Shown in pieces: positions 26,494 through 64,000 of a stretch of DNA of 64,000 bases (the stretch's first letter is position 1; every line of letters starts with the position of its first letter). Source of the stretch: an uncultured Helicobacteraceae bacterium (lineage in GTDB: Bacteria > Campylobacterota > Campylobacteria > Campylobacterales > SZUA-545); contig CAUTXO010000001.1 of assembly GCA_963542625.1 (NCBI GenBank), forward strand, positions 3,068-67,067, written 5' to 3'. The notes under the pieces were generated by a model, which did no database searches, had not been told where the DNA came from, and saw only the letters and a list, made by a program, of their open reading frames with translations. A program made the position numbers and the translations under genes.

Positions 26494-26524
26494 GATCTAA
26501 CGCGCCAAACGTCAAGATCCTGCG

Positions 26525-26754
26525 CCAAAGATCCACGCGCTAAAATCCAAAATCCGTGCAACGCCAGCGTTAAGATCCAAGACTTAGATCTTAGATCCAA
26601 GCCATAAGATCTAGCGCACCAAAGATCCACGCGCTAAAATCCAAAATCCGTGCAACGCCAGCGTTAAGATCCGCCGCTTAAATCTTAGATCTACACCCCA
26701 AGATCTAGCACGCCAAAGATCCGCACTTAAAACCAAAACCTAGCGCTAAGATCC
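26525..26754. repeat. Tandem repeat with 94-bp period, 2 perfect plus 1 degenerate copy
   Basis: The 54-nt core ccaaagatccacgcgctaaaatccaaaatccgtgcaacgccagcgttaagatcc is identical at 26525-26578 and 26619-26672. A degenerate, shorter third copy lies at 26713-26754. Confidence 0.9.
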
Positions 26755-37713: not shown

Positions 37714-39524
37714 TCTATGCCGCCAAAAACTTCAAGCCATTTTGCGTAGGCAATCACTCTCCAAAACTTACCGCTGTAAGCTTGCTTGCCGCTTATAAAC
37801 GCATCAAAATCGCTCAAGATCTTTTCATTTATATACTTGCTTTTTTGCGCCGCCAAAGCTAGCTCGTCCCGCAAAAAAACGTGATGCTTTTTAAACCAAA
37901 GCGCTTCAGGCGTTGCAAAACCTATCTTATCTTTTCTAGATGAAATGATTGCCGGCAAGATCTTAGCCAAAGCTTCACGCAAGATCCGTTTAGTTTGCCC
38001 ACGGTGAATTTTACGCGTTTTATCAGCACAAAGCAAAAACTCCACCAAGCGATAATCCAAAAACGGCAACCTAGATTCAACGGACGAAAACATAGAATTC
38101 CTATCTTCATAGTGCAAAAGCGCCGGTAGGTTGGTGTGGAAGATCTGCGCTAGGGACATTTTGGCTAGGTTACTGCTGCGCTCTCCATAATCTATATACG
38201 GGAATTTAACGTCTATGTTTTTAAATAAATCCGTATTTAGCCACGCGCTCTTTGCGGGCTTAACTAGCTTTTTTATAAACGCCGGCAGTGTGTAAAACAG
38301 CGCCCTGGCAATCAAATAAAACTTTGAAATACCGTGCATCTTGCTAAGGGCTGCTACTTCTTTTGTAAATAAGCCAAACTGAAACTTCACCAAGCATTCC
38401 GACAAAAACGAGTAAAAATATTCATTGTAGCCGCCTAAGATCTCATCGGCACCCTGACCGTCTAGCATAACCTTTATGCCAAGATCTTTCGCCCTTTCAA
38501 ACACGCAAAATTGCGCAAAAATGGACGTTGAAGCATAGGGAACATCTTGCGCGTATATGGTTTTTTTCAAAAAATCCGCATCAAGGAGCCTATCTAGATC
38601 TGGGTAGATCTTATGGCTTGCGATGTTTTTTTGGCTTGCCACACCATCTATAAACAAGCTCTCGTCTATGTTTTTATCCGCGTAGCAAGCGCTAACACAG
38701 TCTAGGCGCTTATCGCTCAAAACATCATCTGCCATAGAAACAATGGACGAGCTATCAAGCCCACCAGATAGACAAGATCCAACACTCACATCCGCCCTAA
38801 GCCGCAAAGAAACAGCGGATCTAAAAAGCTCCAAAAAGTCTGCGGATCTAGTCTGCGGCTCATACCACTTGCTGATACTATAAGAATTAGCTTGCAAGTC
38901 GTAAAGTAGCTTTTCGCCCGCGCACAGCTGCTTTATGGATCTAAAGAATGTATTTTGATTGTAGTCTATCAGCGCGTTTTGCAAAAAGTTATACACAGCT
39001 TCTTCATCAACGCACGCGTCAAAGTTTTCAAGGGCTACAAACTGCTTAATCTCCGAGCCAAACACAAAAAAATCACCTATTTTTGAGTAGTAAAAAGGCT
39101 TAACGCCAAACCTATCCCTAGCGCAAAAAACGGTTTTTTGTAGTTTGTCGTAAATGGCAAAAGCCCACATACCGTTTAAGCGCCATAAGCAATCTTGCCC
39201 AAAGAAATCATAGGCTGCTAAAATAACTTCCGTATCGCCAGCGGTTGTGAAGGCATAGCCCTTATCTAAAAGCTCTTGTTTTAATTCTTGGAAGTTGTAG
39301 ATCTCGCCGTTATATACAATCGTGTAGCGCTCCAAATAAGACATAGGCTGATTAGAACAAGCCCCAAGATCTACGATAGAAAGCCTGCGATGCCCAAGCG
39401 CCACGCCATCATCTACAAAAACACCCGAAGAATCTGGCCCCCTGTGCTTGACGGCGTCAAGCATAAGCGGCAAGTAGCCCTTTGGTATAGGCTTATTAGC
39501 TAGTATGCCTGCTATGCCACACAT
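37710..39524 (-). CDS. Asparagine synthase (glutamine-hydrolysing) family amidotransferase
   Basis: MCGIAG Ntn nucleophile, HRRLSIVD and PP-loop CLSGGLDSSSIVSMA. Confidence 0.85.
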   Translation of the reverse strand: MCGIAGILANKPIPKGYLPLMLDAVKHRGPDSSGVFVDDGVALGHRRLSIVDLGACSNQPMSYLERYTIVYNGEIYNFQELKQELLDKGYAFTTAGDTEVILAAYDFFGQDCLWRLNGMWAFAIYDKLQKTVFCARDRFGVKPFYYSKIGDFFVFGSEIKQFVALENFDACVDEEAVYNFLQNALIDYNQNTFFRSIKQLCAGEKLLYDLQANSYSISKWYEPQTRSADFLELFRSAVSLRLRADVSVGSCLSGGLDSSSIVSMADDVLSDKRLDCVSACYADKNIDESLFIDGVASQKNIASHKIYPDLDRLLDADFLKKTIYAQDVPYASTSIFAQFCVFERAKDLGIKVMLDGQGADEILGGYNEYFYSFLSECLVKFQFGLFTKEVAALSKMHGISKFYLIARALFYTLPAFIKKLVKPAKSAWLNTDLFKNIDVKFPYIDYGERSSNLAKMSLAQIFHTNLPALLHYEDRNSMFSSVESRLPFLDYRLVEFLLCADKTRKIHRGQTKRILREALAKILPAIISSRKDKIGFATPEALWFKKHHVFLRDELALAAQKSKYINEKILSDFDAFISGKQAYSGKFWRVIAYAKWLEVFGGIE

Positions 39525-40461
39525 TTATAAACTTCCTTATAAGGGCATTTGGCAAATTCAAAACGCTTGCTACGTATTTGTTTATAGGGCGCATCTTTAG
39601 CCCTAATAATAAATGATGCCCCCCCCCCGCAGCTATTTTTTGAAAAAACCTAAGCAAGGCTATATTTAGCGTGTTATAAACGTTGGTGCTAAAATCTTGC
39701 CTACCGTCAAAAAACCCATAGCGCGTCCAGATGCTGTAAAAATTCCAAATGCTAAGATTTGAGTTTAGAAAATCTAAGCCTAATTTAAAATCCGGCGCAT
39801 ACGTATTGTCTTCTAGCGATAGCTCGTAAATGCCAACAAGAGAGAATAAAAACCCGTCCAAAACAAGGCTTAGCGGATAAGCCGCGTATTCTTCAAAATA
39901 GACCTTGCCATTATGCGTGGCTCTTACCCCGCCGTTTGCAATATCTATCCTATACATATTAGCACCCGCGCGCGCAAGATCTAAGTATTTGCCGTCCCTT
40001 GTAAAATGAAACCACCTAATCAAAAGGCTTATAATCAAGCCTTGCGCCATTGCAGAAACCCAGCCGCTTTTAAGGAGCGTTTTGCCGTTGTGCCAATTAA
40101 AATTATAAGGCCACTTTTTGGCGCCAATACCACCCGCGCTATGATCTAAGCAAGACGCTTCAATCCAAGCAACAGCCGAAGAAACGCGGTTTATAAAGAT
40201 CTCATCGCTAGTTTCTAAAAACTTTTGAAAGTTCAAAAGCCCATAATACGCAAGATAAGACGGATTCACAAAAAAACCATCATCATAGCGCGTTAGCAAA
40301 ACGCCCGCGCTATCTATTTTGTATCTCTGCCCTAGCGCAAGAGTGCCTATTTGCCAAAGATCTTGGCTATAAAAAACATACTTGCCTGCGTGTGAATAAT
40401 CATCGTTTAAGCGCACATCAACATCTTGGCAAAAATCTTTGAAGTAGGTCATTATTTCCAA
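39496..40461 (-). CDS. D-glucuronyl C5-epimerase C-terminal-domain-like protein
   Basis: SGWVSAMAQGLIISLLIR...TRDGKYLDLA...GGV...YFEEY...LVLDGFLFSLVGIYELS matches the conserved blocks of the glucuronyl C5-epimerase C-terminal family. An alternative ATG lies at 40452. Confidence 0.65.
   Translation of the reverse strand: MEIMTYFKDFCQDVDVRLNDDYSHAGKYVFYSQDLWQIGTLALGQRYKIDSAGVLLTRYDDGFFVNPSYLAYYGLLNFQKFLETSDEIFINRVSSAVAWIEASCLDHSAGGIGAKKWPYNFNWHNGKTLLKSGWVSAMAQGLIISLLIRWFHFTRDGKYLDLARAGANMYRIDIANGGVRATHNGKVYFEEYAAYPLSLVLDGFLFSLVGIYELSLEDNTYAPDFKLGLDFLNSNLSIWNFYSIWTRYGFFDGRQDFSTNVYNTLNIALLRFFQKIAAGGGHHLLLGLKMRPINKYVASVLNLPNALIRKFINVWHSRHTS
39619..39628 (-). repeat. Poly-G(10) homopolymer in the C5-epimerase-like gene
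   Basis: Run of 10 C on the + strand. It encodes AAGGGHH and lies about 95 nt upstream of the overlapping AsnB-family start. Confidence 0.95.
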
Positions 40462-41294
40462 GCTTTAACGTAAGAAAACCAACCAAGCTTGCCCTCAAAA
40501 CTTTCCAAAAAGCCCTTTGGCAATAAATACCCAATAGGCCAAAACATCCATTTCTGAACAAGCTTATTAAACACATACACGTATCGAAATTCAGACATCA
40601 TAGATCTAAGCTCATCGTTTGAATACATATCGCCCTTTGGGTTGCCAAAGCCATCAACGGCATTTAAAAGCTCCTTTCTAGACATACCAAGATAGCGCGG
40701 GTGTATAAACGGTAGCATATTGAAGTTCCACATACTAAGCAAGCTGTTTTTATGATAAAACATCATTATTAGGCGCCCCCCCCCCCGCAGGACTCTATAA
40801 GCTTCGTTTATCGCCTTTTGCGTGTTTGGTGTGTGATGCAAAACTCCCATTGAGCACACGCAATCAAACGTGTTATCTTCAAACGGCAACTCTTCAGCAT
40901 TTGCAACAAAAATATCCCCGCTAAGCCCCAAAGATCTAAAGCGGCTTTTTGTTATATCCACAGCCGTTTGCGTAATGTCTATTCCCGTTACAAAGGCCCC
41001 GTTTTTTGCGTAATGGCTAAGCACATAACCGTTACCACAACCTATATCCAAAACCTTTTTGCCACTAAAGCTCGGATACTCGTGCAAGTTATAAGAAAAT
41101 TCCAAACTCTCGTTTTTTTCTCTAAAGGCATCGCCTTTTTTGAAATACATTTCGCTACCAAATTCTTCATTAATGGCGCTTGAACCTACCGGGTTTTTAT
41201 CCCAAAACTCTTTAACATCGTCAATCGTAATACTCAGCTTATATCCTTTATAAAACACCGCAACATCTAGTGCAAGCCGGAAACATTCCAACAC
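40452..41294 (-). CDS. Class I SAM-dependent methyltransferase
   Basis: KVLDIGCGNGYVLSHYA motif I, FDCVCSMGVLHHTP and GGRLIMMF. Confidence 0.8.
   Translation of the reverse strand: MLECFRLALDVAVFYKGYKLSITIDDVKEFWDKNPVGSSAINEEFGSEMYFKKGDAFREKNESLEFSYNLHEYPSFSGKKVLDIGCGNGYVLSHYAKNGAFVTGIDITQTAVDITKSRFRSLGLSGDIFVANAEELPFEDNTFDCVCSMGVLHHTPNTQKAINEAYRVLRGGGRLIMMFYHKNSLLSMWNFNMLPFIHPRYLGMSRKELLNAVDGFGNPKGDMYSNDELRSMMSEFRYVYVFNKLVQKWMFWPIGYLLPKGFLESFEGKLGWFSYVKAWK
40776..40786 (-). repeat. Poly-G(11) homopolymer in the methyltransferase gene
   Basis: Run of 11 C on the + strand. It encodes LRGGGRL. Confidence 0.95.
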
Positions 41295-42336
41295 GCCTTA
41301 GCGAGCTTCTAAAATCTTTCATTTTTTTACCATTCCAAATACTTCCAAAACTTTCTTTCATAATATTTCCCATCACGATATGAAAACAGCGCGTCATAAT
41401 AATCACATCACCGTTAGCCATAAACTGCGCCTGCTCCCAAGGGACGCGACAGTGATCCCTTGAAAATATTTTTTTAGGATCCGTAAAATACATTTTTGCA
41501 TCTTCAGCACTATTAAAATAAGGAGTTTGTATAAGATGAACCCCCCCCCCTTGCTTAATAATTTTTGCCGCTTTCTGAAGATTTTCATACATCAGATCAT
41601 AATCAATTGTTTCAGGGAAAATCGAGCTAATGCACGTTGGTGTGGCGCGCGCTATATCGCCAAAGTATTTGTTGTGTGTATTTGCCATATCCTGCGTAAC
41701 AAAATTCAAATGAGAAAACGCAACTTGCGTTGGGTGGATCTTAATAACTTCACGCGCAAAATCTTCCAAATGCAAGTAATTCCAATCCGACACAACGTGA
41801 TTTATCAGCCTTTCTTTTATGCCAAGATCCTTAGCCCTTAAAAAACCTTCAACGGCATTGGCGTAAGATTTGCCACCCCCGCCTCTTATTTTGTCGTGAA
41901 TCTCTGCTGTGCCGTCTAAAGAGATAGAAAGCGTATCAAGCCCGGCTGAAGCTAGGTCGTCTATTTTTTTAGGAAGCAAAAGCCCGTTTGTACCAACTTG
42001 CGTTTTGCAACCCTTTTTCTTGGCGTATTCAATTGCCGCTGGCAAATGCTTCCAAAGCAAGGGCTCGGTAGAAATAATGGCAATCACCGGGCGCACGGGG
42101 GCTAGCTCATCCACAATGCGCTTAAAAACTTCAAGCGGCATATCCATATTCGCCGAAAGCATGTTAAGCGTAAATTGTGTATCCGTTTGGTTTTGCCCCA
42201 CATCGCACATCTTGCAAAACAAGTTACAACGCGAATTGACTATTATATAAACCATCTTAGGCCACAAAGCGCTACTGCCTAAAAGGTGGCGGTTTATCTT
42301 TAGCCTAACGTATGGCACTAAATTTTTTAATTGCAT
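41248..42336 (-). CDS. Radical SAM enzyme with C-terminal Cys-rich (SPASM/twitch-like) region
   Basis: IVNSRCNLFCKMCDV CX3CX2C motif and C-terminal Cys residues (DHCRVPW...TRCF...PACTRCCG). The preferred ATG at 42336 (MQLKNLV...) overlaps the upstream stop (TGATG). The longest ORF extends to 42381. Confidence 0.8.
   Translation of the reverse strand: MQLKNLVPYVRLKINRHLLGSSALWPKMVYIIVNSRCNLFCKMCDVGQNQTDTQFTLNMLSANMDMPLEVFKRIVDELAPVRPVIAIISTEPLLWKHLPAAIEYAKKKGCKTQVGTNGLLLPKKIDDLASAGLDTLSISLDGTAEIHDKIRGGGGKSYANAVEGFLRAKDLGIKERLINHVVSDWNYLHLEDFAREVIKIHPTQVAFSHLNFVTQDMANTHNKYFGDIARATPTCISSIFPETIDYDLMYENLQKAAKIIKQGGGVHLIQTPYFNSAEDAKMYFTDPKKIFSRDHCRVPWEQAQFMANGDVIIMTRCFHIVMGNIMKESFGSIWNGKKMKDFRSSLRRVGMFPACTRCCGVL
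41541..41550 (-). repeat. Poly-G(10) homopolymer in the radical SAM gene
   Basis: Run of 10 C on the + strand. It encodes KQGGGVH. Confidence 0.95.
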
Positions 42337-43508
42337 CAGGCAAGCTCTTTTTTCAAAATAACAAAATCGCCGTCTTTCCACTGCGTGCCATTAAAAGATC
42401 CGTTAACAATAAGCTCAAAACTATCCCTTAAATACCCCGCCATACTTTCCGTGCTGTGCTTTTTGTAGACAAGATCTTGCGCCGCTGCTGCAACGCCTTC
42501 GTAATCTTTTATATTGCGTAATAGATCTTTAATCTGCCTTATTGGATCCCCAAGATCTAGCTCCACATAATGCACGTTTTCTTTAAAGCCCATATCAGAA
42601 AATCCATAAGGCGCCACACAAAGCAAAAGCGATTTGTTAGCCGGGATCTCAAAAAACTTCCTAATAGCGGTTTTGTATTGGCTACCATCGGTAAAGGAGA
42701 TCTTAGACGTCGCCAAATGCTCTTCAAAAATAAAGTTATAAAGCTTCATCGTTACGATGTTTGAATACGGCTTAAGCCCCAACCTATTAAAAAGCGAATA
42801 CGCAAAGTTATGGATCCTGCGCGGCATAGTGATCTCTTTTGCTTGCTTAACCTGCTCTCTTAACGCCCGGCGCTGATAATAAAGCACGCCCTCTACGGAA
42901 AAATCGTATTTTCTGTGCTCTAGGCAAGAGTATCTAAATTCACTAGGTGCAATGGTATGGTAAAAAGAAATTGTCCTGTGCTTATACCTATTTACAAACT
43001 CGTAATAATCGTCATTTAAAAGCCCTACGTGCTTTTCTTTGTCTATGCCGGGGAGATCTTTCATCGCAACTAAATATTGCGTCCCCATACCTATATAATA
43101 AGCGCCCTGTTCTTCGTAGGCCTTCATAATGTACGTCGGAAAATTGTGAAAGTCAAACATTTCCTTAAAGACGAGGTTTGTATTTTTCAAAGACGCTATA
43201 TCCCTAGCAATAGCCGGCAAATAATAAATGTGTTCTATTGGGTAGTGAATAAACCTATATTTTCTGTATTCGTTTAGGTATTTTGCGTTGATTGGTTGGG
43301 TGGAAAAATACGGAAAGCAAATATCATCAACGACAATATCAAAGCCACCGTGCCTTTCTATGTAAGCGTTCAAGCCCTCTTTTAGCGTTTTTTCATCGGA
43401 AAACCCTGGTCCAAAAAAATAAGCGTTTAATTTTCTAAAGATGGTTAAATAGTTTCTATCTGTAGGGTTTAAATACTCATTGTAAGCACCGATGTAAAGT
43501 ATCCTCAC
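42336..43508 (-). CDS. Hypothetical protein, possibly a CgeB-like glycosyltransferase-family domain
   Basis: 390 aa. The C-terminal half (IRKFFEIPANKSLLLC...VHYVELD...IKDLL...) loosely resembles Glyco_trans_1_2/CgeB-type domains. GTGA overlap with the upstream stop. Confidence 0.45.
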   Translation of the reverse strand: MRILYIGAYNEYLNPTDRNYLTIFRKLNAYFFGPGFSDEKTLKEGLNAYIERHGGFDIVVDDICFPYFSTQPINAKYLNEYRKYRFIHYPIEHIYYLPAIARDIASLKNTNLVFKEMFDFHNFPTYIMKAYEEQGAYYIGMGTQYLVAMKDLPGIDKEKHVGLLNDDYYEFVNRYKHRTISFYHTIAPSEFRYSCLEHRKYDFSVEGVLYYQRRALREQVKQAKEITMPRRIHNFAYSLFNRLGLKPYSNIVTMKLYNFIFEEHLATSKISFTDGSQYKTAIRKFFEIPANKSLLLCVAPYGFSDMGFKENVHYVELDLGDPIRQIKDLLRNIKDYEGVAAAAQDLVYKKHSTESMAGYLRDSFELIVNGSFNGTQWKDGDFVILKKELA

Positions 43509-45980: not shown

Positions 45981-46989
45981 TTTTATCTCCTTTTAGCTCC
46001 CCAAATGGTAGGACGTAAAAGCCTGAATATTCTTTCAAAAGCTCGTCTTTTGTGGCGTGCAAAACGTCCTTGTTTGCTAGGCTGATGAAGTATTTATACT
46101 CCCGCTGGCTTGCCGCAAATTTTTTCTTAAACCTATACACGCCGTCTTGGCCAAGCCACGTCCCGCCCCAATTCCACCATTCATAGCCAGCGCTTGCTGC
46201 CTTTTGCATTGCGGTAAAAATCACAAGCGGCAAGGCTTGAAGGCTTCTAAATTCTTCCACCACAGCTGGCGTGAAATACTCAACCGTTTTGTTGTAGTAA
46301 AAAACAAGCAAGGCCGCCACCGGCTCGCCGTTTAGATCTGCTGTAAAGATCTCGTAATCCGCTGTGGGCGTAAAAAACTCCGGCAAACGCGCAAAAAACT
46401 CCCGAGTTTTTGTCTGCCCACCAAGCTTTGAGATGTTTTGCTGGTGCGTTTGGTATAAAAAATCGCTAGCTGAATTATCCACCGCCACTCTCACGCCGGC
46501 GTTTTGCGCCTTTTTAATGTTGCGCCTTGCGCTTGCGTCAAGCCCTGCTAAGATCTCATCCGGCTTTGCAAGAGGCGTGAATTGCCCTATGCGCTTGTCC
46601 GTGTAGTCAAAGCGCGCAAGATCTTGCAAGGCGCTATCAAGCGGGTTTTGAATATACACGCTGCACGCCGCACGCGCGCTTAAGTCTTCGTAGTGCGCTT
46701 TTAACGCCTCAAAGGCTTGCTCGGCTTTGCTAAAGATCCCGCCGTTGCTGCCAAAATACGCAAGCGAATTAATCACGCGCCCGTATTTGCCACCCTTTGC
46801 CACAAGCGGCAAGGCGCCTTGTATCTCTCCGCCATCGTCTAGGGCTAGCGCATAAAGGCTTTGCGCGCCTAAAAATTCTTCCAAAAACCGCTTGTATTTC
46901 ACGCTATGGTAAAAAAGGCTGTGCGAAAACTCGTGCAAAAATCGCTCGTATCTTTCAAAAAGCGGCTCATCAAGCGTTACAATTTTCAT
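45958..46989 (-). CDS. FemAB-like / GNAT-fold aminoacyl- or acyl-transferase
   Basis: About 343 aa from the ATG at 46989 (ATGA overlap with the upstream stop). The C-terminal part (NGEPVAALLVFYYNKTVEYF...YRFKKKF) resembles FemAB/lipid II glycyltransferase-like families seen in EPS loci. Confidence 0.55.
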   Translation of the reverse strand: MKIVTLDEPLFERYERFLHEFSHSLFYHSVKYKRFLEEFLGAQSLYALALDDGGEIQGALPLVAKGGKYGRVINSLAYFGSNGGIFSKAEQAFEALKAHYEDLSARAACSVYIQNPLDSALQDLARFDYTDKRIGQFTPLAKPDEILAGLDASARRNIKKAQNAGVRVAVDNSASDFLYQTHQQNISKLGGQTKTREFFARLPEFFTPTADYEIFTADLNGEPVAALLVFYYNKTVEYFTPAVVEEFRSLQALPLVIFTAMQKAASAGYEWWNWGGTWLGQDGVYRFKKKFAASQREYKYFISLANKDVLHATKDELLKEYSGFYVLPFGELKGDKNDEQQNN

Positions 46990-48995
46990 AAGATCCCTTG
47001 CGCTGCATAGGTTTGCAACCATTTTTCAAAGTTAATCAAGCTCCAAATAAAAAGCCGCCTGTTTTCCTTGCCGTCAAAGTGGCGCTGGGCGATTTCGCGC
47101 ACTTTTTTAGGGTCTAAAAACTCATACATCGCCGCGTTTTTATTGCCGATGACAAGGCGCACAAAATCCACGCTCTGCCCCCTAAACCACGTGCTATCCG
47201 GGCTTGAAAAGCCCTGCTTTACACCCGCTGCGATGTCTTGCGGAATGTAATCTTTTACCGCTTGGCGCAAGATCTTCTTGCCGTCGTTTGTCTTTTGAAA
47301 GTAGGTGCTAGCCTTAGAAAGGCTGTTTTCATCAATTTTTACCACTTCCTGCAAATTAGCTAGCTTAAAATTAACGGGCAAGCTGCAAGCAAAATCCACA
47401 AGATCATTGTCTAAAAACGGCACGCGCGTTTCTAGCCCGTGCGCCATAGAAAGCTTGTCTTCAACCGTCAGCAAGCCGCGCAAAAAGGTCTTTGCTTCAA
47501 AGTAAAGAGAATGGTTGATGTAGTCCTGCGGCGAGTTATTTTTAACGTTTTTCTTAAAGACGTTTCTAAAGATCTCAATCGTCTGCACGTGCGCCACATC
47601 AGATCTAATAGGCTCAAAGAGTTCTTTTAGGTCGCGGTTTGGTAGCAATCTTTGCCAAAAAACGTAGTATTTGTTGATGTAATCGTCAAAATTCGTGCTG
47701 GCTGCGGCGCGGTAATACCGCCACGGATACCCGCCAAAGAGTTCGTCGCCGCCAATGCCGCTTAGCGCCACCTTGACAAAACGGCTAGCAAGCTTTGAGG
47801 CGTAGAAGTTTGGGTAGCTCTGCCCAATGCGCGGCTCTTCTAAATGATACGCAAAAAGCGGCAAGCAACGCTGCATATCGCCAGATTTTAGCACCATCTC
47901 GTAATGCTCGGTTTGGAAGATATAGCTAAGGCGCTCCGCGCGCGCGCGCTCGTCAAAGCTTAGCTCTATCCCGCTTGCGCTGCTTAGATCAAAGCCCACT
48001 GTAAAGGTTTTTAAAAGTGGCAATTTTGACGCCGCCACAGCCGTTATGCTGCCGCTATCTATGCCGCCTGATAAAAAACTGCCGATCTCAACGTCGCTAG
48101 CAAGCTGGCGCGAAACGGCTTGCGCAAAGAGTTCTTTTAGCTTTTTGGTAGCGGATACTTCATCTAGCGAGCCATCTTGAAAGAAGTTAAAATCCCAATA
48201 AAGGCTTTTTTTAAAGCTCCTTTTGTTTAGATCTAGCTCAATAAAAGATCCTGGCTCTAGGAGCCTAATCTCAGCAAAAAACGTCCTATCTGTAAAGATA
48301 TTTTGAAAGGTAAAATACTCATAAAACGCCGCCTTATCAAGGGAAAAGCTAAGATCTTTATATTCTAAAATCGCCTTATTTTCGCTCGCAAAAATGAAAA
48401 ACCCGTCTTTAAAGTAGTAGTAAAGCGGCTTAATGCCGTAGCGGTCACGCGCGATGAAAAACTTCTTTTTGCGGTTATCCCACAGCGCAAAGGCAAACAT
48501 ACCGTTAAATTCCTTGACGCAAGCCGTGCCGTAGTGAATGTAGGCGTATAAAATCACTTCTGTATCGCTTGAAGTTTTGAACTTATACCCAAGCGCGGCG
48601 AGCCTTGCGCGAAGATCTTGGTAGTTGTAGATCTCGCCGTTAAAAACAATCCAAACTTCGCGGGAGATGTCGCTCATTGGCTGATGCGCGGCGGGGCTAA
48701 GATCTATAATGCTAAGGCGTCTGTGCGCCATCATAAGGTCGTAATCGTGGAAGTTCAGCTCAGCCTGCGCACTCTCGTCTTCTTCGCACATCAAAAGCGG
48801 GGAAATGGCTTTAAAATTTCTGTCCGTTAGGTTTTGGTAAAACGAAACGCCAGGCGCGGATTTTGTCCCCGTGTGAAAATACAAATACCCAGCGTCGTCC
48901 CTGCCCCTGTGAGCGATTTTATCCGCCATAGGCCTTAATAAAGCCGGATTTACAAAGGGCTTATCCAAGCTTAACGCACCGACAATTCCGCACAT
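46986..48995 (-). CDS. Asparagine synthase (glutamine-hydrolysing) family amidotransferase; first gene of the operon
   Basis: MCGIVG Ntn nucleophile, HRRLSIIDLS and PP-loop FLSGGIDSGSITAVA. 669 aa. Confidence 0.85.
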   Translation of the reverse strand: MCGIVGALSLDKPFVNPALLRPMADKIAHRGRDDAGYLYFHTGTKSAPGVSFYQNLTDRNFKAISPLLMCEEDESAQAELNFHDYDLMMAHRRLSIIDLSPAAHQPMSDISREVWIVFNGEIYNYQDLRARLAALGYKFKTSSDTEVILYAYIHYGTACVKEFNGMFAFALWDNRKKKFFIARDRYGIKPLYYYFKDGFFIFASENKAILEYKDLSFSLDKAAFYEYFTFQNIFTDRTFFAEIRLLEPGSFIELDLNKRSFKKSLYWDFNFFQDGSLDEVSATKKLKELFAQAVSRQLASDVEIGSFLSGGIDSGSITAVAASKLPLLKTFTVGFDLSSASGIELSFDERARAERLSYIFQTEHYEMVLKSGDMQRCLPLFAYHLEEPRIGQSYPNFYASKLASRFVKVALSGIGGDELFGGYPWRYYRAAASTNFDDYINKYYVFWQRLLPNRDLKELFEPIRSDVAHVQTIEIFRNVFKKNVKNNSPQDYINHSLYFEAKTFLRGLLTVEDKLSMAHGLETRVPFLDNDLVDFACSLPVNFKLANLQEVVKIDENSLSKASTYFQKTNDGKKILRQAVKDYIPQDIAAGVKQGFSSPDSTWFRGQSVDFVRLVIGNKNAAMYEFLDPKKVREIAQRHFDGKENRRLFIWSLINFEKWLQTYAAQGIL

Positions 48996-49330
48996 TTCTT
49001 TCCTTTAAAAACCGTTATTCTACAAAAACAAGGCAAAAGTAAGCCCGCGCGGGTTTGGTAGCGCTTAGCGCGGCTAGATCTTGCGCGCTAGATCCACGCT
49101 AGATCCGTAACAGATCTTAGCGCCCGCGCGTAACGCGTTGGCTTAGATCTAAGCGCCAAGCGTGCGGATTGGCACTGGCAAGATCTATGCTAGATCTAGC
49201 ACGCGCAAGATCTTACCCCTACGCGATGCTTTTTCTTTTTTTAATTATGGTAGGGGTAGATCTTGACTAGGATTTGCGCTAGATCTAAGCGCTTGTGTTT
49301 TTTCTTTTTTAAATTAGGGGGAAAGGGATG

Positions 49331-49672
49331 GTAGATCTTAACTAAGATCTGTTAGCTAGATCTAGAGTTAGATCTTGACTAAGATCTTTTTTTAGGGGGA
49401 AGGGGGCTTGAATTGCTGCGTCACGGCTCCCGTTCCCCTTTGAACCCCCAGCCCCCGACGACGCTTTTTAAAGGGGCATAGCTACGCTATGCAAATTAGA
49501 AAAAATAAACTGCATAGCCTTTGGCTATGCCCCTTAAGAAGCGTGCTGTGGTTTAGGGGTTTGGGGGAAGTGGGTGGCTCGCAACTTGACCCCCTTTCCC
49601 CCAAAAGAAAAAAAATACAAGATCTAATAGGCGCCTTAGAGCTAGCTAACAGATCTTAGTCAAGATCTTAGC
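49331..49672. repeat. Imperfect palindrome of about 340 bp centred near 49502
   Basis: Arm pairs: 49343-49386 with 49621-49668; 49394-49410 (agggggaagggggcttg) with 49582-49602 (caacttgaccccctttccccc); 49472-49482 (aggggcatagc) with 49524-49534 (gctatgcccct), perfect 11 bp; 49486-49493 (gctatgca) with 49511-49518 (tgcatagc), perfect 8 bp. Confidence 0.85.
49429..49456 (-). other. Canonical G-quadruplex motif (G3+N1-7 x4) on the minus strand
   Basis: The + strand reads ccc gtt cccc tttgaa ccccc ag ccccc. The mirror arm at 49556-49577 (ggggtttgggggaagtgggtgg) is a near-motif on the + strand. Confidence 0.5.
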
Positions 49673-49832
49673 CCCCAAGATCTTAGCCTTAGAAAAAACA
49701 TAAGATCTAAACGGTGCTTTAGATCTGGCTAACAGATCTTAGGCAAGATCTTAAGTCAAAGTGGGTGGCGTAAAGATCCACGCTTGGTGGTGGCGGGCAC
49801 GATTCGTGCAAGATCTCACACCGTAGATCCGG

Positions 49833-51419
49833 CTAGTTCTGCCTTAATAGATCCTGCATTTTCACAGGAATGCCGAGAATTTTTCTATACATATAGTAGT
49901 TCGTCAAAACCTTCTTGCCATAATCGCGCGACTCCTTGTATGGCACAAGCTCAATGCTTAAAAACGGGTCGTATTTGCCGCCTTTAAAGAGCTTGCTAAC
50001 GACAAGCCGGTTTGTAAAACCGCTGCCTCCGTTGTAGGCGTAGGCAATTAGGAGCGGGTTTTTTTTGTAAATGTCGCGCAGGTAGTCGATGTGCGAAACG
50101 GCGTAGAGCAAGATCCTATCAACGCTAAAAAAATCCGGCAAATAGGCGCTTTCTTTTCTTGTTTTTGCGATGCTTCTTATCAAAAATGGCATCATTTGCA
50201 TAGCGCCGATGGCGTAAGAATGCGAAAGCGCGCACGGAAAAAACCCGCTTTCTTGCTTTGCCAAAGCCAAAATTAACGCCTGATACTCCTTATCTAGCGC
50301 GGATAATTTCTTCTTCCACGGGTTGATGAAATACTCATACTCAAAGCGCTCTAGCCTAGAATAAACCGCCGCCCTAAAAGGCTCGGCGTGCGGTCCGCCA
50401 AGCTCAAGCAGCAAGTGCTTTAGATCTTGCTTACTAGCGCCGCGCAACCTTTGCAAAAAGGCGTCTAGGTAGAAAGGATCTTGCGTTTTTTTAAGCTCAA
50501 GCGGCTTGGATCTTGGCAGCGCGGGCGCGGCGGTTTTGTAGTTTGGCGGCGGGGCTAGCGCGGACTTTTCCCTAAAATAAACGGTGTAAAAGTTGATGTT
50601 TGTGCTCTCAGTAAGCCCAGCGCGCGGCTCCTTTGCGCCGGTGATAAGCCAAAGCCAGAAGTTGATTTTATCCTTGCCGCTTGAAGTTTTTGTGTGCTTT
50701 AGCGCCTGCTTTAAGCCTTTGATGGCAAGGGCTTCATTGCCTTTTTTTAGCGCCAGCATTGCGTAAAAAAACGCGGCATTTGCGCCAAGATTTTTCACGT
50801 CTAGCTTCAAAACCGAGCCGCTGATGGCATTTAGCGAAGTTTCAAGCGCAACGTGCTCGACGGATCTATCCAAATAATACCCCGCCTCAAGCGCGTCTAT
50901 GAAACCACGAGAAAGCCGCACGTCTAACTTGTTTGCGCGGCATTTTGTACCGCAAAGGCTAAAGGCTTTTACGGCGGTTTGGGCGTTTGACGTCTTGAAA
51001 TGCTTTGCGTCTGCCATATAGAATAGGATCTTAGCAAGCGCGGCGTCGGCGTCTTTGTAGCGCAGGGCTAGGACGATTTTATCGCTTTGCGAGAGCTCCG
51101 CCGCCTTTACAAAAGAAAAGCCTAGAAGCGAGCACTCAAGCGGAGCGCTCACAAGCTCTTCTGGGGCTAGCGCTTGGCATTTTAGGTAGTCCTTTAGCGC
51201 CGCGTCTTGCGTGATTTTTAGCAAGGCTTCCACGTGTGCGCGCTTAATGTCTTTGACGGAGTAGAAGATCTCTTGCGCCCGCGCCGCGTCTTGCGTGCTT
51301 TGCAAAAACAAAAGCGCGTAAAAATCCCTAGCCCTTGATGGCGGCTTGGACGCTAAAAACTCATAACTAACCGCATAAACAAAGGACGCAACAAGCAAAA
51401 AGGCTATGATTTTTTTCAA
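49833..51419 (-). CDS. slt: Soluble lytic murein transglycosylase (Slt family)
   Basis: Signal peptide, a long helical superhelical N-terminal region and a C-terminal SLT domain (LALAKQESGFFPCALSHSYAIGAMQMMPF...AYNGG). Confidence 0.85.
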   Translation of the reverse strand: MKKIIAFLLVASFVYAVSYEFLASKPPSRARDFYALLFLQSTQDAARAQEIFYSVKDIKRAHVEALLKITQDAALKDYLKCQALAPEELVSAPLECSLLGFSFVKAAELSQSDKIVLALRYKDADAALAKILFYMADAKHFKTSNAQTAVKAFSLCGTKCRANKLDVRLSRGFIDALEAGYYLDRSVEHVALETSLNAISGSVLKLDVKNLGANAAFFYAMLALKKGNEALAIKGLKQALKHTKTSSGKDKINFWLWLITGAKEPRAGLTESTNINFYTVYFREKSALAPPPNYKTAAPALPRSKPLELKKTQDPFYLDAFLQRLRGASKQDLKHLLLELGGPHAEPFRAAVYSRLERFEYEYFINPWKKKLSALDKEYQALILALAKQESGFFPCALSHSYAIGAMQMMPFLIRSIAKTRKESAYLPDFFSVDRILLYAVSHIDYLRDIYKKNPLLIAYAYNGGSGFTNRLVVSKLFKGGKYDPFLSIELVPYKESRDYGKKVLTNYYMYRKILGIPVKMQDLLRQN

Positions 51420-51694: not shown

Positions 51695-51734
51695 ACCGTC
51701 TCCAAAAACACAAGTTTAGCCAAGCAGGCTTAAA

Positions 51735-51880
51735 CCAGCGCGGATCTTAGCTTGGATCTTGCACACCGTGAGTGACTTTACGCAATGAGACTAGCGTTAA
51801 GATCTGTCAAGATCTTACGCCCAAGATCCACAGCAAACGGCGCTAAAGATCCTAGCCCAAGATCTAGCGCCTAAGATCTT
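51735..51880. repeat. GATC-word-rich intergenic block containing a dispersed repeat copy
   Basis: 51811-51878 (gatcttacgcccaagatccacagcaaacggcgctaaagatcctagcccaagatctagcgcctaagatc) is closely related to 58799-58868. Confidence 0.8.
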
Positions 51881-51881
51881 C

Positions 51882-53165: not shown

Positions 53166-55745
53166 ATGCCAAACGCTTACGACCCGCAAAACTCCGGCTT
53201 GCTTTATAAATTCTGGGAAGAAAACGGCTTTTTTGAGCCGCAAGACGCCGCCGGCGACAAAACATTTTGCATAATGATGCCCCCACCAAACATCACGGGG
53301 CGGCTCCACATCGGGCACGCGCTGACTTTTACTTTGCAAGACATCATCACGCGATACAAAAGAATGAGCGGGTTTAAGACGCTTTGGCAGCCAGGCACGG
53401 ATCACGCAAGCATTGCGGTAGAAAACATCGTAGAAAAACAGCTAGCGCAAGAAGGGCTAACAAAACAGCAGCTAGGCAGGGAAGAATTTTTGCGCCGTGT
53501 TTGGCAGTGGAAAGAAAAAAGCGGCGCGGACATCGTTCATCAGTTGCGCCGGCTTGGCGTATCGCCGGCTTGGAGCCGCGAGCGTTTTACGATGGACGAT
53601 GGCTTAAGCAAGGCGGTTAGAAAAGCCTTCGTGCAACTTTACAACGAGGGCAATATTTTCAAAGGAAACTATCTTGTCAATTGGTGCGTAAGGTGCGGCG
53701 CGCTATCAGACATCGAAGTAGAATACGAAGAACACAAGGGCAATTTATACTATTTAAAATACTCACTTGATGGCGAAAACGGCTTTGTAACCGTTGCCAC
53801 GACGCGCCCAGAGACTTACTTTGGCGATACCGCCCTTATGGTAAATCCGCACGATGAAAAAAACAAGCACCTAATAGGCAAAACGGCTGTGCTCCCGCTC
53901 ATTGGCACAAAGATCCCAATCATTGCCGATGAATTTGTTGATGAAAGCTTTGGTAGCGGGGTTGTAAAGGTAACACCCGCGCACGATCCAAACGACTACG
54001 AAGTCGGCAAACGCCACGGCTTGGAATTTAAAACTATCTTTGATGAGCGCGGGATCTTAAACAATCTTTGCGGAGATTTTTCAGGGCTTAGCGTTAAAAA
54101 CGTAAGAAGCGCGGTTATAGAAGAGCTGCAAGAAAAGGGCTTTGTGGAAAAAATAGAGCCGCACGTTCATCAAGTGGGGCATTGCTACCGCTGCAACACA
54201 GTGATTGAGCCCTTTATTTCCAAGCAATGGTTTTTGAAAAAGGAAGTCGCGCAAAAGGCGATAGATCTTGTCAATGCCGGGCAAACAAAATTCCACCCGC
54301 AAGGCTGGAAAAACAATTACGACGCTTGGATGCGCGACCTACGCGACTGGTGCATTTCAAGGCAACTTTACTGGGGGCATAAGATCCCCGTTTTTTACTG
54401 CGACGCCTGCGGATACGAAACAGCAAGCGAGCAAGATCTAAGCGTCTGCCCTAAATGCGGCGGCAAAATGCGCGGCGATGAAGACGTGCTAGATACTTGG
54501 TTTAGCTCGGCGTCTTGGCCCTTTTCTACGCTTGGTTGGGGCAATGCGGGTAACCCCAAAACGCGCCCTGACGACCTTAAAAACTACTACCCAAATTCGC
54601 TACTAATCACGGGCTTTGATATTTTGTTTTTCTGGGTGGCTAGAATGCTGATGTTTGGCGTGCATTTTCTGGGGCAAGTGCCTTTTAAAGACGTTTATTT
54701 GCACGCGCTGGTTAAGGACGAAAAGGGGCAAAAAATGAGTAAATCCAAAGGAAACGTGATAGATCCTTTGGAGATTGTGGATACGCTCGGCGCGGATACT
54801 TTGCGCTTTACGCTTGCCGCGCTTGCCGTTCAGGGCAGGGATATTAAGCTTTCAAAAGAGCACCTAACGCAATACAGAAATTTTGCCAACAAGATCTTCA
54901 ACGCAAAAAATTACCTACTCCTAAACACGCAAAACGTGCAAGATCTTGACGCTCCCGCCGTGCAAACGGGGCTTGGAAAGTTTATGCTACATAAGTTTTC
55001 GTGTGCTTTGCGCGAGCTAAAAACAAACCTAGATAGCTACCGCTTTAACGACGCGGCGCTGGTGCTTTACAAGTTTTTCTGGAATGACTTTTGCGACTGG
55101 GGCATAGAATTTGCCAAGGCAAGCCCGCAAAGCGTGCCAGAGCTTGCCGCCATTTTTAAAGAAAGCCTAAAAATGCTGCACCCGTTTATGCCGTTTTTAA
55201 GCGAAGAACTCTACCAAGAGCTAGGCGGCACGGAGCTTACAAAGCAAACGTCCATAATGTCCGCGCCCTTCCCAAGCACGGATTTTAAAGATGAAAAAAC
55301 CGCAGCGGAATTTGAGCTAATAATTGAAGCCGTGCAATCGCTAAGGCGGGCAAAGGTGCCTATCGATATGGCAAACAAAACCGTCAAAAAGGCTTATCTG
55401 CTAACAAGCAAGCACATAAGCGAGCTAGGCTTAATCAAAAAACTAGGCAAGGTTGATGAGCTTGAAATCGTCCAAACCGAGCCAGATGGTTGCGTTAGCG
55501 ATGTGTCGCAAAACCTAAAAAGCCTTATCCCAACGGCGGCGCTAGATCTAAGCGAAGTTAAAGCTAGGCTAAACGCACAAATGGCTAAGGCGCAAAAAGA
55601 GCAAGAAAAGCTTGAGCGTATGCTTGGCAATGAAAATTTTGTTAAAAACGCCCCGCCAGCGGTTGTGGAAGCAAACAAAAAAAATCTAGCCGAAACCCTA
55701 GCGCAAATTAAAAAATTCAGCGACGAACTAAAGCGCCTTAGCTAG
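53166..55745 (+). CDS. valS: Valine--tRNA ligase
   Basis: PPPNITGRLHIGHAL (HIGH), KMSKSKGN (KMSKS), a CP1 editing domain and a C-terminal coiled coil. Confidence 0.95.
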   Translation: MPNAYDPQNSGLLYKFWEENGFFEPQDAAGDKTFCIMMPPPNITGRLHIGHALTFTLQDIITRYKRMSGFKTLWQPGTDHASIAVENIVEKQLAQEGLTKQQLGREEFLRRVWQWKEKSGADIVHQLRRLGVSPAWSRERFTMDDGLSKAVRKAFVQLYNEGNIFKGNYLVNWCVRCGALSDIEVEYEEHKGNLYYLKYSLDGENGFVTVATTRPETYFGDTALMVNPHDEKNKHLIGKTAVLPLIGTKIPIIADEFVDESFGSGVVKVTPAHDPNDYEVGKRHGLEFKTIFDERGILNNLCGDFSGLSVKNVRSAVIEELQEKGFVEKIEPHVHQVGHCYRCNTVIEPFISKQWFLKKEVAQKAIDLVNAGQTKFHPQGWKNNYDAWMRDLRDWCISRQLYWGHKIPVFYCDACGYETASEQDLSVCPKCGGKMRGDEDVLDTWFSSASWPFSTLGWGNAGNPKTRPDDLKNYYPNSLLITGFDILFFWVARMLMFGVHFLGQVPFKDVYLHALVKDEKGQKMSKSKGNVIDPLEIVDTLGADTLRFTLAALAVQGRDIKLSKEHLTQYRNFANKIFNAKNYLLLNTQNVQDLDAPAVQTGLGKFMLHKFSCALRELKTNLDSYRFNDAALVLYKFFWNDFCDWGIEFAKASPQSVPELAAIFKESLKMLHPFMPFLSEELYQELGGTELTKQTSIMSAPFPSTDFKDEKTAAEFELIIEAVQSLRRAKVPIDMANKTVKKAYLLTSKHISELGLIKKLGKVDELEIVQTEPDGCVSDVSQNLKSLIPTAALDLSEVKARLNAQMAKAQKEQEKLERMLGNENFVKNAPPAVVEANKKNLAETLAQIKKFSDELKRLS

Positions 55746-55901
55746 CCGCGCACGCCCCCGCACCCCGCGCAAGATCTAAGCTTACAACCTTACTCTTGCG
55801 CGTCTTGCGCTTACGCGCGAACGGTTTGCGATTTAGCACATTTAACATTTGCGTGCTAAAATTTCGCGGAAGTTTGAGTGAATAAGACTAAAGGATTAAA
55901 A

Positions 55902-57767
55902 ATGCCAAAGCATAAATTTCAGACGGAAGTCAATCAGTTACTAGAGTTAATGATCCATTCTCTTTACTCCAATAAAGAGATTTTTTTGCGCGAGCTCATC
56001 TCCAACGCCTCCGACGCGCTGGATAAGCTAAAATTTCTAACAATCAGCGACGACAAATACAAAAACGTTGAATTCGCGCCGAAAATCGAGATTAAATTCG
56101 ACGAAAAAAACCGCAAAACGCTCACCATTAGCGACACGGGCATTGGAATGAACGAGCAAGATCTAATAGAAAATCTAGGCACAATCGCAAAATCGGGCAC
56201 AAAAAATTTCATTGCAAGCCTAAGCGGCGACAAAAAAAAGGATTCTAGTCTCATCGGGCAGTTTGGCGTGGGATTTTATTCGGGCTTTATGGTGGCGGAT
56301 AGAATCGAAGTTACGAGCAAAAAAGCAGGCGAGGACGCGGCGTTTTCGTGGGTGAGCGACGCAAGCGGCGAGTATGAGATAAACCAAGCCCAGCGTGCTT
56401 CACACGGGACAACGATTGTCCTATATTTAAACGATGAAAACGGCAAAGAATTCGCCAACCGCTGGACGCTAGAGAGCACAATTAAAAAATACTCCAATCA
56501 CATTCCATTCCCGATCTTTTTAGAATTTGAGGAAAAAGAATACGACAAAGACGGCAAAGAAACGGGCAAAACGCTCAAAAACGAGCAAATAAACGCCGCG
56601 AGCGCGCTTTGGAAAAGACCTAAAGCAGAGCTTAAAGACGGCGATTACAATGAATTTTACAAGACAATCAGCCACGATTCAGACGAGCCAATGCTCCACA
56701 TTCACACAAAAGCCGAAGGCACGCTTGAATACACCACGCTTTTTTACATTCCAAAAAAAGCGCCCTTTGATATGTTCCGCGTGGATTACAAGCCAGGCGT
56801 GAAGCTTTACGTCAATAGAGTTTTCATCACCGACGACGAAAAAGAACTGCTGCCAACGTATTTGCGCTTTGTGCGCGGGGTCATAGACTCTTCAGATCTC
56901 CCACTAAACGTCAGCCGCGAGATCTTGCAGCACAACAAGATCCTAAGCAGCATAAGATCAGCAAGCGTCAAGAAGATCTTAGACGAAATTGCAAAAATGG
57001 CGGAAAACGCGGACGTCTACAAAGCCTTTTGGGGTGAGTATTCCCGCGTGATTAAAGAAGGGATCTACCAAGACTACACCAACAAAGACAAGCTCCTAGA
57101 GCTCGCTAGGTTCAAATCGCTAAACAAAGAAGGCTTAATCTCGCTCAAAGAATACAAGCAAGATCTAAAGGAAAAGCAAGACGCCATCTACTTCATCACG
57201 GGCGAAAACGAATGGACGCTAAGGAATTCGCCGCTGCTTGAGGGCTTCAAAAAGCAAGGAATTGACGTGCTAATTTGCGATGAAGACATAGATGAGATTG
57301 TGATCCCATCCATCGGCGAATACGACAAAACGCCGCTAAAAGCCGCAAACCGCGCCACGAATGAAGCGGCAGAGCTTAGCAAAGACGACGCCGAGAAAGC
57401 AAAGCCCGTCATAGAAAAGATCAAAGAAGCGCTGAAGGACAAGGTAAAAGACGTCAAGGCTAGCACGCGCTTGCAAGACTCGCCTTCTTGCGTTGTGGCG
57501 GACGAAAACGACCCGACGGCGCAAATGCAGCAAATGCTAAAGGCGATGGGGCAAACGGCAAATCTCGATGAGATCAAGCCGATTTTGGAGATAAACCCTC
57601 ACCACGCCATCGTTACAAAACTAGCGGCGCTAGAAGATAAGGATCTAATCGCCGCCGTGAGCGAAATGCTCCTAGCGCAGGCAATGCTCCTTGATGGGCG
57701 TCAGCTCAAAGATCCAGTGGTTTTTGCAAACACGCTCAATAAAATAATGGAAAAATCACTACAATAG
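55902..57767 (+). CDS. htpG: Molecular chaperone HtpG (Hsp90)
   Basis: FQTEVNQLLELMIHSLYSNKEIFLRELISNASDALDK and GQFGVGFYS. The ATG at 55902 is preceded by AAGGA, whereas the longest ORF starts at a GTG at 55878. Confidence 0.95.
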   Translation: MPKHKFQTEVNQLLELMIHSLYSNKEIFLRELISNASDALDKLKFLTISDDKYKNVEFAPKIEIKFDEKNRKTLTISDTGIGMNEQDLIENLGTIAKSGTKNFIASLSGDKKKDSSLIGQFGVGFYSGFMVADRIEVTSKKAGEDAAFSWVSDASGEYEINQAQRASHGTTIVLYLNDENGKEFANRWTLESTIKKYSNHIPFPIFLEFEEKEYDKDGKETGKTLKNEQINAASALWKRPKAELKDGDYNEFYKTISHDSDEPMLHIHTKAEGTLEYTTLFYIPKKAPFDMFRVDYKPGVKLYVNRVFITDDEKELLPTYLRFVRGVIDSSDLPLNVSREILQHNKILSSIRSASVKKILDEIAKMAENADVYKAFWGEYSRVIKEGIYQDYTNKDKLLELARFKSLNKEGLISLKEYKQDLKEKQDAIYFITGENEWTLRNSPLLEGFKKQGIDVLICDEDIDEIVIPSIGEYDKTPLKAANRATNEAAELSKDDAEKAKPVIEKIKEALKDKVKDVKASTRLQDSPSCVVADENDPTAQMQQMLKAMGQTANLDEIKPILEINPHHAIVTKLAALEDKDLIAAVSEMLLAQAMLLDGRQLKDPVVFANTLNKIMEKSLQ

Positions 57768-61317: not shown

Positions 61318-61326
61318 GGGGGGGGG
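61318..61326 (+). repeat. Intergenic poly-G(9) tract
   Basis: Run of 9 G, 3 nt after the ATPase stop, between convergent gene ends. Confidence 0.9.

Positions 61327-61367: not shown

Positions 61368-64000
<2,633 letters not shown>

Follow-up and report, generated by a model that had tools for sequence, protein, structure and literature searches.

The question raised by this locus is what a long imperfect palindrome does in the gap between two minus-strand genes of an uncultured Helicobacteraceae species from the phylum Campylobacterota. The gap (48996-49832; 837 bp) lies in a 64-kb stretch of DNA, referred to below as the window. It is poor in open reading frames (ORFs), the longest of which has 56 aa, and it separates slt (49833-51419, minus strand; a 528-aa SLT-domain lytic transglycosylase) from asnB (46986-48995, minus strand; a 669-aa AsnB-type amidotransferase), the first gene of a glycan operon of ~22 kb (26768-48995, minus strand). 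An earlier analysis made from the letters alone (the sequence-only reading) had described a palindrome of about 340 bp with a switch-like core of four segments, and had offered four explanations: a structured leader of the glycan operon, a terminator or insulator after slt, a miniature inverted-repeat transposable element (MITE), and a recombination or cruciform site marking an island boundary. That both genes bordering the gap are on the minus strand is a correction to it. Here the palindrome is tentatively read as a terminator/insulator of slt set within a decaying local inverted duplication, an interpretation to which a probability of about 0.42 is assigned.

The structure is real, statistically striking and species-specific. 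Opposite-strand self-BLAST placed it at 49333-49668, on both strands, with a dyad centre near 49501 (69.3% over 355 columns; E-value, 2e-28), which bears out the palindrome originally described. The minimum-free-energy analysis that had been proposed for it yielded -173.1 kcal/mol (z -13.1) for RNA of the plus strand and -172.8 kcal/mol (z -15.2) for that of the minus strand, and DNA folding gave -86.9 kcal/mol (z -12.5); on both strands the region forms one near-continuous hairpin. None of the 11 other intergenic gaps of the window that were compared contains a long inverted repeat. Among 12 fetched related loci (~109 kb), the only long inverted repeat is the orthologous one in locus L009, and L012 has an unrelated short one. 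Other species yielded no comparable spacer; beyond this species, the nearest Slt among the matches listed is 53% identical and is followed by a different gene.

The outer arms of the palindrome are 32 nt long. The left one (49333-49364, plus strand) is 94% complementary to the right one (49637-49668, minus strand) and contains a 24-nt unit, AGATCTTNNCTAAGATCTGTTAGC, which occurs in the 64 kb only at 49333 (plus), 49645 (minus) and 49728 (minus), in each case within the slt-asnB gap. The 25-nt arm core with one mismatch that had been reported earlier is present; its in-register left partner is 49333-49364 and not 49343-49386 as had been given, and 49370-49390 matches too, in an alternative register. 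The G-rich inner arm pair was also recovered. The left inner arm (49387-49416, plus strand; T7 followed by G5AAG5) pairs with the right inner arm (49581-49610, minus strand; C5TTTC5 followed by an A-run) at 77%, and at 85% over 20 nt. The 226-bp core (49387-49612) is single-copy in the 64 kb according to BLAST of the window.

Self-alignment revealed that the symmetric repeat block as a whole is larger than the sequence-only reading had stated, extending on both strands from 49224 to 49790. Three plus-strand units, L3 (from 49224), L2 (from 49293) and L1 (from 49385), face three mirrored minus-strand units, R1 (from 49618 down), R2 (from 49705 down) and R3 (from 49790 down), each made up of a T-run, a G-run and a cluster of AGATCT motifs. 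On both sides, the T-runs of all units are directed at the centre. Direct repeats are found within the block as well, namely 49227-49287 with 49296-49364 (77%) and 49610-49670 with 49693-49753 (85%).

Alignment of one arm against the other gave 121 matches in 169 columns, the differences consisting of 16 transversions, 19 gap columns and 13 transitions. Of these transitions, 9 would be wobble-compatible in plus-sense RNA and 4 in minus-sense RNA; the mismatches are not enriched in G-U-compatible changes. Since the arm differences are mostly transversions and gaps, and the two strands are equal in folding, conservation of the RNA type is not seen in the long stem. This comparison of the arms detected no RNA-type covariation in the long stems, which thus do not look as if they were under selection at the RNA level. 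Searches against Rfam, one by E-value over 48000-51000 and one of the whole window at the gathering threshold, returned no match to the palindrome at gathering score, but only weak generic miRNA-like hairpin models and two tRNAs.

For comparison within the species, six contigs were used, i.e., the source contig of the window and five fetched loci that are 96.6-99% identical to the window. One of them, L009 (an ENA scaffold, 98.5% identical), is the sole fetched contig that spans the whole gap, and two full-length alleles are therefore available. The long inverted repeat is retained in L009 (z -14.8), and a third strain keeps the assembled part of the left arm.

At the centre of the palindrome lies the four-segment core (49472-49534, both strands), which reads GGGGCATAGC-TAC-GCTATGC, a 19-nt A/T spacer, and GCATAGCC-TTT-GGCTATGCCCC. 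All of the elements quoted for it earlier are present: a perfect 11-bp stem (49472-49482, AGGGGCATAGC, with 49524-49534), a perfect 8-bp stem (49486-49493 with 49511-49518) around an A-rich loop of 17 nt, and four copies of GCATAGC/GCTATGC in alternating orientation, located at 49476, 49486, 49512 and 49524. The four-copy cluster is local, because the heptamer GCATAGC is not over-represented in the window (15 found versus 14.8 expected). Both of the pairing topologies proposed for the four segments exist. In the window allele, the nested form (1:4 plus 2:3) reaches -36 to -37 kcal/mol and the two small hairpins (1:2 plus 3:4) -18.9 to -26 kcal/mol, the latter arrangement being ~10 kcal/mol weaker.

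On the minus strand, the window has GCATAGCC-AAA-GGCTATGC followed by AGTTTATTTTTTCT, and L009 has GTATATGC-AAA-GCATATGC followed by AGTTTATTTTTTTT. The structure with two local hairpins is 100% paired in both alleles, with two double-sided changes between them, and a third change, C to U, stays paired (as U-G) only in minus-sense RNA. In contrast, 4 of the 14 pairs of the nested form are lost in L009, whose minimum-energy fold consists of two local hairpins in a three-way junction. The second central hairpin of L009 has kept its stem while the loop has grown to T7A7, and at its centre this allele has a perfect 28-bp spacer-less palindrome, GCATAGCT7A7GCTATGC. The pattern is suggestive of a small hairpin and its mirror copy, each of which would be evolving as a hairpin of its own. 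An operator for a dimeric regulator was also considered for these repeats and was rejected, as GCATAGC is not enriched elsewhere and L009 has altered both half-sites of one site symmetrically, which a hairpin fits better than a protein site.

One of the two small hairpins has the form of an intrinsic terminator for slt. The site (49495-49530, minus strand) comprises the hairpin GCAUAGCC-AAA-GGCUAUGC (49530 down to 49512) and then AGUUUAUUUUUUCU; the stem has 8 pairs, 5 of them G-C, the loop is AAA, and AGTTTATTTTTT comes directly after it (-12.7 kcal/mol, z -3.6). A stable stem-loop is thus placed immediately before a U/T-rich tract, downstream of slt and on the same strand, and it is the top-ranked terminator-like site in a 20-kb scan. 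In L009 both the hairpin and the T-run behind it are kept. Of the four explanations offered earlier, the terminator/insulator after slt is therefore the best supported, and an ordinary intrinsic terminator is the most probable working part of the palindrome. Like known intrinsic terminators, including those in stacked or convergent arrays, the site combines a GC-containing 8-bp hairpin and a 3-nt loop with a U-rich tract directly behind them, on the strand that carries the upstream gene. Paired substitutions between the two alleles leave the hairpin intact. The site differs from known terminators in lying within 340-570 bp of mirror symmetry and ~300 nt past the stop codon, and in being faced by an opposite set of modules with no gene.

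A second, weaker terminator-like module was found on the minus strand at 49690-49726 (unit R3), where the hairpin AGAUCUAAA-GCACCG-UUUAGAUCU is followed by UAUGUUUUUUCU (-9.0 kcal/mol, z -3.2); it is identical in L009 and, as far as assembled, in L007. On the plus strand, the central hairpins precede A-rich or mixed sequence, and the centre would therefore act in one direction only. The three plus-strand hairpins of the left side are weak (-5.7 to -8.4 kcal/mol).

Further downstream, a candidate promoter of the operon was recognized by eye. A -10-like box, TAGAAT (49017-49022, minus strand), with a T-rich upstream stretch, stands 21 nt before the asnB ATG (48995). The asnB-proximal region is almost invariant, and the box itself is identical in the window, L009 and L010; two TGNTANAAT boxes elsewhere in the window stand 16-31 nt before start codons. 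The promoter of the operon is thus probably located next to asnB. If the box is the promoter, the palindrome lies outside the asnB leader, because only 21 nt separate the box from the ATG.

The position of this box bears on the structured leader, attenuator or non-coding RNA that the sequence-only reading had listed first, in which alternative pairing of the four segments would control the glycan operon. The palindrome does lie upstream of the operon on the sense strand, either topology is thermodynamically possible, and conservation is high across the left half of the gap. The four segments recall trp-type attenuators, which pair 1:2 plus 3:4 or 2:3 (plus 1:4). In those systems, however, the U-tract does not follow the first hairpin as it does here: on the sense strand of the operon, the tract stands behind the 5' hairpin, and the second, 3' hairpin is followed by CCCUUUAAAAAGCG. 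Other differences are that the alternative pairing is not conserved, as the broken nested pairs of L009 demonstrate, that the core is 470-540 nt upstream of the asnB ATG, with the promoter-like box far closer, and that a leader peptide is missing. A leader peptide or small protein was rejected, as the ORFs of the gap, including that of 56 aa, are not conserved between strains (L009). Together with the long stems free of RNA-type covariation and the Rfam result given above, this makes a switch in the leader very improbable.

Based on these observations, the following course of events is proposed for the terminator/insulator. Short modules, each composed of a hairpin (mostly AGATCT-based), a T-tract and a G-tract, would have been duplicated in tandem and then in inverted orientation, giving three modules facing three mirror modules and, with them, one long imperfect palindrome. 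RNA polymerase leaving slt on the minus strand would first meet the weak hairpin and U-tract at 49726-49690 and then terminate at the best hairpin and U-tract, at the dyad centre (49530-49495), while the mirror modules could stop antisense transcription on the plus strand. The glycan operon would start at its own promoter by asnB (TAGAAT, 49022-49017), in which case the palindrome would be an insulator between two co-directional transcription units rather than a leader. The "four-segment switch" would then be the small terminator hairpin plus its mirror copy, and the long-range complementarity a decaying by-product, not a selected feature. The anatomy of the palindrome, its uniqueness, its conservation in the species and the pattern of its changes are observed, whereas termination, the position of the promoter and the origin by inverted duplication are all inferred from sequence.

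Several points weigh against this interpretation. The simple terminator scan returned as many sites as expected from shuffled sequence and was used for ranking only, so the top rank is weak evidence. The central site lies ~300 nt past the slt stop codon, which would leave an unusually long 3' region. Termination does not call for 340-570 bp of symmetry, and on the plus strand no gene is apparent that the modules could serve. The double changes that keep the central hairpins paired come from two alleles, and in a short palindrome they can also arise by templated (quasipalindrome) mutation in the absence of selection. Finally, the asnB side of the gap (48996-49482), which includes the left palindrome arm, has 2 differences from L009 in ~490 bp, compared with 1% in genes; that this left 490 bp is more conserved than genes hints at a further function there.

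Should the palindrome be a terminator in a decayed inverted duplication, it would matter little in itself, merely marking the end of the slt transcript, and the glycan operon would be an independent unit regulated by its seven poly-G contingency tracts (described below) and not by a leader switch. Long palindromes are normally unstable in bacteria. A persistent palindrome with a fast-mutating centre would thus be a natural test case for palindrome dynamics.

The changes between strains are concentrated at the palindrome. All seven indels that distinguish the window from L009 in 7.6 kb fall within 49483-49676, and a hypervariable stretch on both strands (49483-49572), covering the centre and the right inner arm, holds 5 of these 7 indels and ~30 of the 45 differing gap columns. 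Units are gained and lost as well: ~143 bp of units L2/L3 are deleted in L010 (region 49198-49340), L007 and L008 have an extra 27-bp AGATCT unit after slt (at 49796), and both changes, the loss and the gain, are found in the strain of a metagenome-assembled genome (MAG) at NCBI (GCA_052173315.1), which has also partly lost the AGATCT sites of its left arm. The gap is an assembly breaker. Four of the six same-species contigs end inside it, at the window equivalents of 49713 (L004), 49699 (L007), 49745 (L008) and 49456 (L010), and in the NCBI MAG slt and asnB are at the ends of two different contigs.

Such a pattern is also what a neutral by-product would leave, i.e., a functionless, decaying product of snap-back or template-switch errors seeded by dense AGATCT palindromes, with any terminator activity being incidental. 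The low similarity of the arms (69-72%, with differences that are mostly transversions and gaps), the mutation hot spot at the centre and right arm, the turnover of units, and the 32-fold over-representation of AGATCT, which is densest in this very gap, all agree with it. Against it, the palindrome is retained in both strains with an assembled gap and in the assembled left-arm part of a third, and both small central hairpins are perfect in each strain despite the local hypervariability. The other AGATCT-rich gaps compared have no long inverted repeat, and a generic by-product of AGATCT-rich spacers was rejected as a full explanation for that reason. Taken together, we regard a purely neutral origin as plausible, though less likely than the terminator/insulator.

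A site acting at the level of DNA was considered next to the terminator, either as a cruciform- or G-quadruplex-prone hot spot of recombination or mutation, or as an array for an AGATCT-binding protein that organizes or insulates the locus. The symmetry is equal on both strands, the AGATCT sites in the arms are spaced 12-13 bp apart, the indels between the window and L009 all fall at the palindrome, and the centre of L009 carries the spacer-less 28-bp palindrome. G-tract motifs mirror each other on opposite strands. That at 49429-49456 (minus strand; G5-CT-G5-TTCAAA-G4-AAC-G3) follows the canonical pattern of a G-quadruplex and is retained by three strains; in its plus-strand mirror at 49553-49577, the number of full tracts is three in the window but four in L009. 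However, the window allele has 17-19-nt loops at its centre, which disfavour cruciform extrusion, the MAG strain has, as mentioned, lost some of its left-arm AGATCT sites, and there is no known candidate for the binding protein. A site of this kind is plausible but given a low probability.

It appears about equally doubtful that the palindrome is a non-autonomous mobile element of the MITE or foldback type, inserted between slt and asnB and bounded by long terminal inverted repeats made of sub-repeats. Its size (340-570 bp), its inverted arms with their ability to form hairpins and the absence of a conserved coding sequence would fit such an element, the contigs of the species break in the gap as they do at repeats, and relatives with a 53% identical Slt carry a different gene after slt. 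Nevertheless, the core and the arm unit are confined to a single locus in the 64 kb. Among the matches listed, the core has no BLAST match in plasmids or phages, and no pattern match in viral contigs (0). When metagenomes were scanned with a 21-mer common to three strains, two matches were listed, with 58% and 76% GC and no further similarity, which are ascribed to chance. No target-site duplication was seen by inspection at either edge of the palindrome (the flanks read ...GGATGGT|AGATCT and AGATCT|TAGCCCC, with no direct repeat), the edges grading into similar repeats. An empty site was seen in no strain, and the Pfam scan of 46 window ORFs detected no transposase, integrase or recombinase. 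Families of MITEs and imperfect-palindrome repeats, such as Correia, ERIC/IRU and REP/BIME, have been described in other bacteria (PMC2817692). The palindrome resembles them in being intergenic, non-coding, hairpin-forming, built of inverted arms and variable between strains, and differs from them in its one detectable copy, the lack of a target-site duplication, and the lack of a transposase or RAYT in the window.

Still less probable is an inverton, in which the 32-bp inverted repeats (49333-49364 and 49637-49668) would enclose 272 bp of DNA whose inversion turns the glycan operon on or off. The length of the repeats and the size of the spacer suit the invertons found upstream of capsule and glycan loci in other phyla, and metagenome assemblies do break in the gap. 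Yet the breaks lie away from the edges of the inverted repeat, and across the left inner arm the window is collinear with both L009 and L010. L009 lacks the sole promoter-like box inside the segment (TCTAAT, recognized by eye), the palindromic nature of the segment sets it apart from known invertons, and no recombinase is among the window ORFs scanned with Pfam, although one could be encoded elsewhere in the genome. An inverton is hence considered extremely improbable.

The building block of the arms is more unusual than the palindrome itself. AGATCT is the commonest hexamer of the window, with 233 copies versus 7.3 +/- 2.7 in dinucleotide-preserving shuffles (a 32-fold excess). Its density is 2.9 per kb within genes, where every reading frame is used, and 10 per kb in non-coding spacer DNA. 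In total, 166 of the 233 copies are inside genes, mostly in the frame xxA-GAT-CTx (Asp-Leu). The slt-asnB gap is the densest place, with 22 copies in 837 bp, and dense clusters are located at 5172-5574, 20681-21043, 22118-22342, 22835-23022, 26493-26706, 49076-49816 and 51800-51879. Given this window-wide excess, the outer arms are built from a genome-wide palindromic word. The flanks of the motif extend the palindrome to YWAGATCTWR, and 419 of the 474 GATC sites have the context RGATCY (AGATCT, 233; AGATCC, 87; GGATCT, 81; GGATCC, 18); the other NGATCN contexts number 55, against ~185 expected from base composition, with CGATCG absent (0) and TGATCA found once. The RGATCY pattern suggests a bias linked to restriction/methylation or to repair. 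No DNA methyltransferase is encoded in the window.

Relatives with a 53% identical Slt and a GC content of 33-36% were included in the comparison (L006, 1-12514; L005, 1-15048; L002; L003). AGATCT is in excess there too (39 versus 1.6 expected in L006, and 29 versus 8.7 in L005), dispersed and not in dense spacer arrays; the Nautiliaceae loci lack it. The trait is accordingly an old one that extends across the clade. Within the searchable papers, no relevant report was found of a genome-wide over-representation of AGATCT or of AGATCT in the Campylobacterota.

The closest parallel is HIP1 (GCGATCGC), the highly iterated palindrome of cyanobacteria (PMC5861425, PMC4390886). As with HIP1, a short GATC-centred palindrome is many-fold over-represented across a clade, in spacers and in all frames of coding DNA; here the motif is another one (AGATCT/RGATCY, 6 nt), the phylum is different, and dense spacer arrays are found in addition. 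The likeness concerns the AGATCT building block and not the long palindrome. REPs, as strictly extragenic palindromes of 20-40 nt that occur in hundreds of copies, are a poorer parallel, and a REP/BIME identity was rejected because of the many copies inside genes, in all three frames.

Abundant short motifs are also known as the DNA uptake sequence (DUS) of Neisseria and the uptake signal sequence (USS) of Haemophilus, whose spacer-enriched inverted pairs double as terminator stems. Both are non-palindromic 9-12-mers and occur about once per kb. A precedent in the same phylum is the RAATTY methylation tag of Campylobacter jejuni, a palindromic hexamer that serves as an uptake tag. AGATCT is similar to these in its abundance and inverted pairing, and an uptake role for it would be by analogy.

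The palindrome may thus be viewed differently, as the most conspicuous local outcome of a HIP1-like system that operates across this lineage of uncultured Helicobacteraceae and actively maintains AGATCT (RGATCY) at a >30-fold excess. Methylation-linked repair or the uptake of self-DNA could be the driver, and the spacer arrays would seed hairpin modules, gain and loss of units, and snap-back inverted duplications. We consider this possible, if on balance doubtful. Were it true, the spacers next to surface-glycan genes would be hot spots of structural change. The function of HIP1 has been an open question for decades, and the Campylobacterota are mostly competent and rich in methylation biology. 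As a second, independent case of the HIP1 kind, AGATCT would offer a new way to test the explanations by methylation-repair and by uptake drive.

Variation in spacers is not confined to the slt-asnB gap. The AGATCT-rich spacers vary in length between strains with 97-99% identical genes, and nearly all indels in strain comparisons of 7-12 kb fall in spacers. The first 229 nt of L004 have no alignment to the window beyond 51789, in the spacer 51695-51881.

Near-identical proteins of the organism are named "MAG: Helicobacteraceae bacterium" at NCBI, in the assembly mentioned above. Besides asnB, the glycan operon has genes for two more AsnB-like enzymes, WbqC, a radical-SAM/SPASM protein, several methyltransferases, a sulfotransferase with APS kinase, a UDP-GlcNAc 2-epimerase, a GT4 glycosyltransferase and a PEP-utilising enzyme. 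Outside the operon, the window consists of housekeeping chromosome, with flagellar rod genes, genes for Moco synthesis and chemotaxis, and those for ClpB, a YggT-family protein, FlgH and FliP. According to the annotation of the related locus L007, the genes at 53166-55745, 55878-57767 and 61368-63362 are counterparts of those for ValRS, an HSP90-family protein and DNA ligase, respectively. A replication origin was rejected for the gap, which has no match to TTATCCACA with one mismatch or fewer; there is no dnaA in the window, and the GC skew tracks gene orientation.

Poly-C runs of 10-11 nt, which are poly-G in the coding strand, were observed at seven places, 28855, 31238, 36773, 39619, 40776, 41541 and 44821, each inside a different gene of the glycan operon. 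No other window gene has one, and a G9 run is located at 61318. The seven genes are classic phase-variable contingency genes of the Campylobacter/Helicobacter type. The proposal that the palindrome marks an island boundary does not agree with base composition: the low-GC part of the operon begins ~5 kb away (the drop spans ~32.5-43.5 kb). In this middle part (32546-43508), GC is 39-45%, versus 47-53% at the ends of the operon and in its neighbours, and the density of AGATCT is normal, at 3-5 per kb. The low GC would fit DNA that was acquired long ago or has since been ameliorated, or else the base composition usual for glycan genes.

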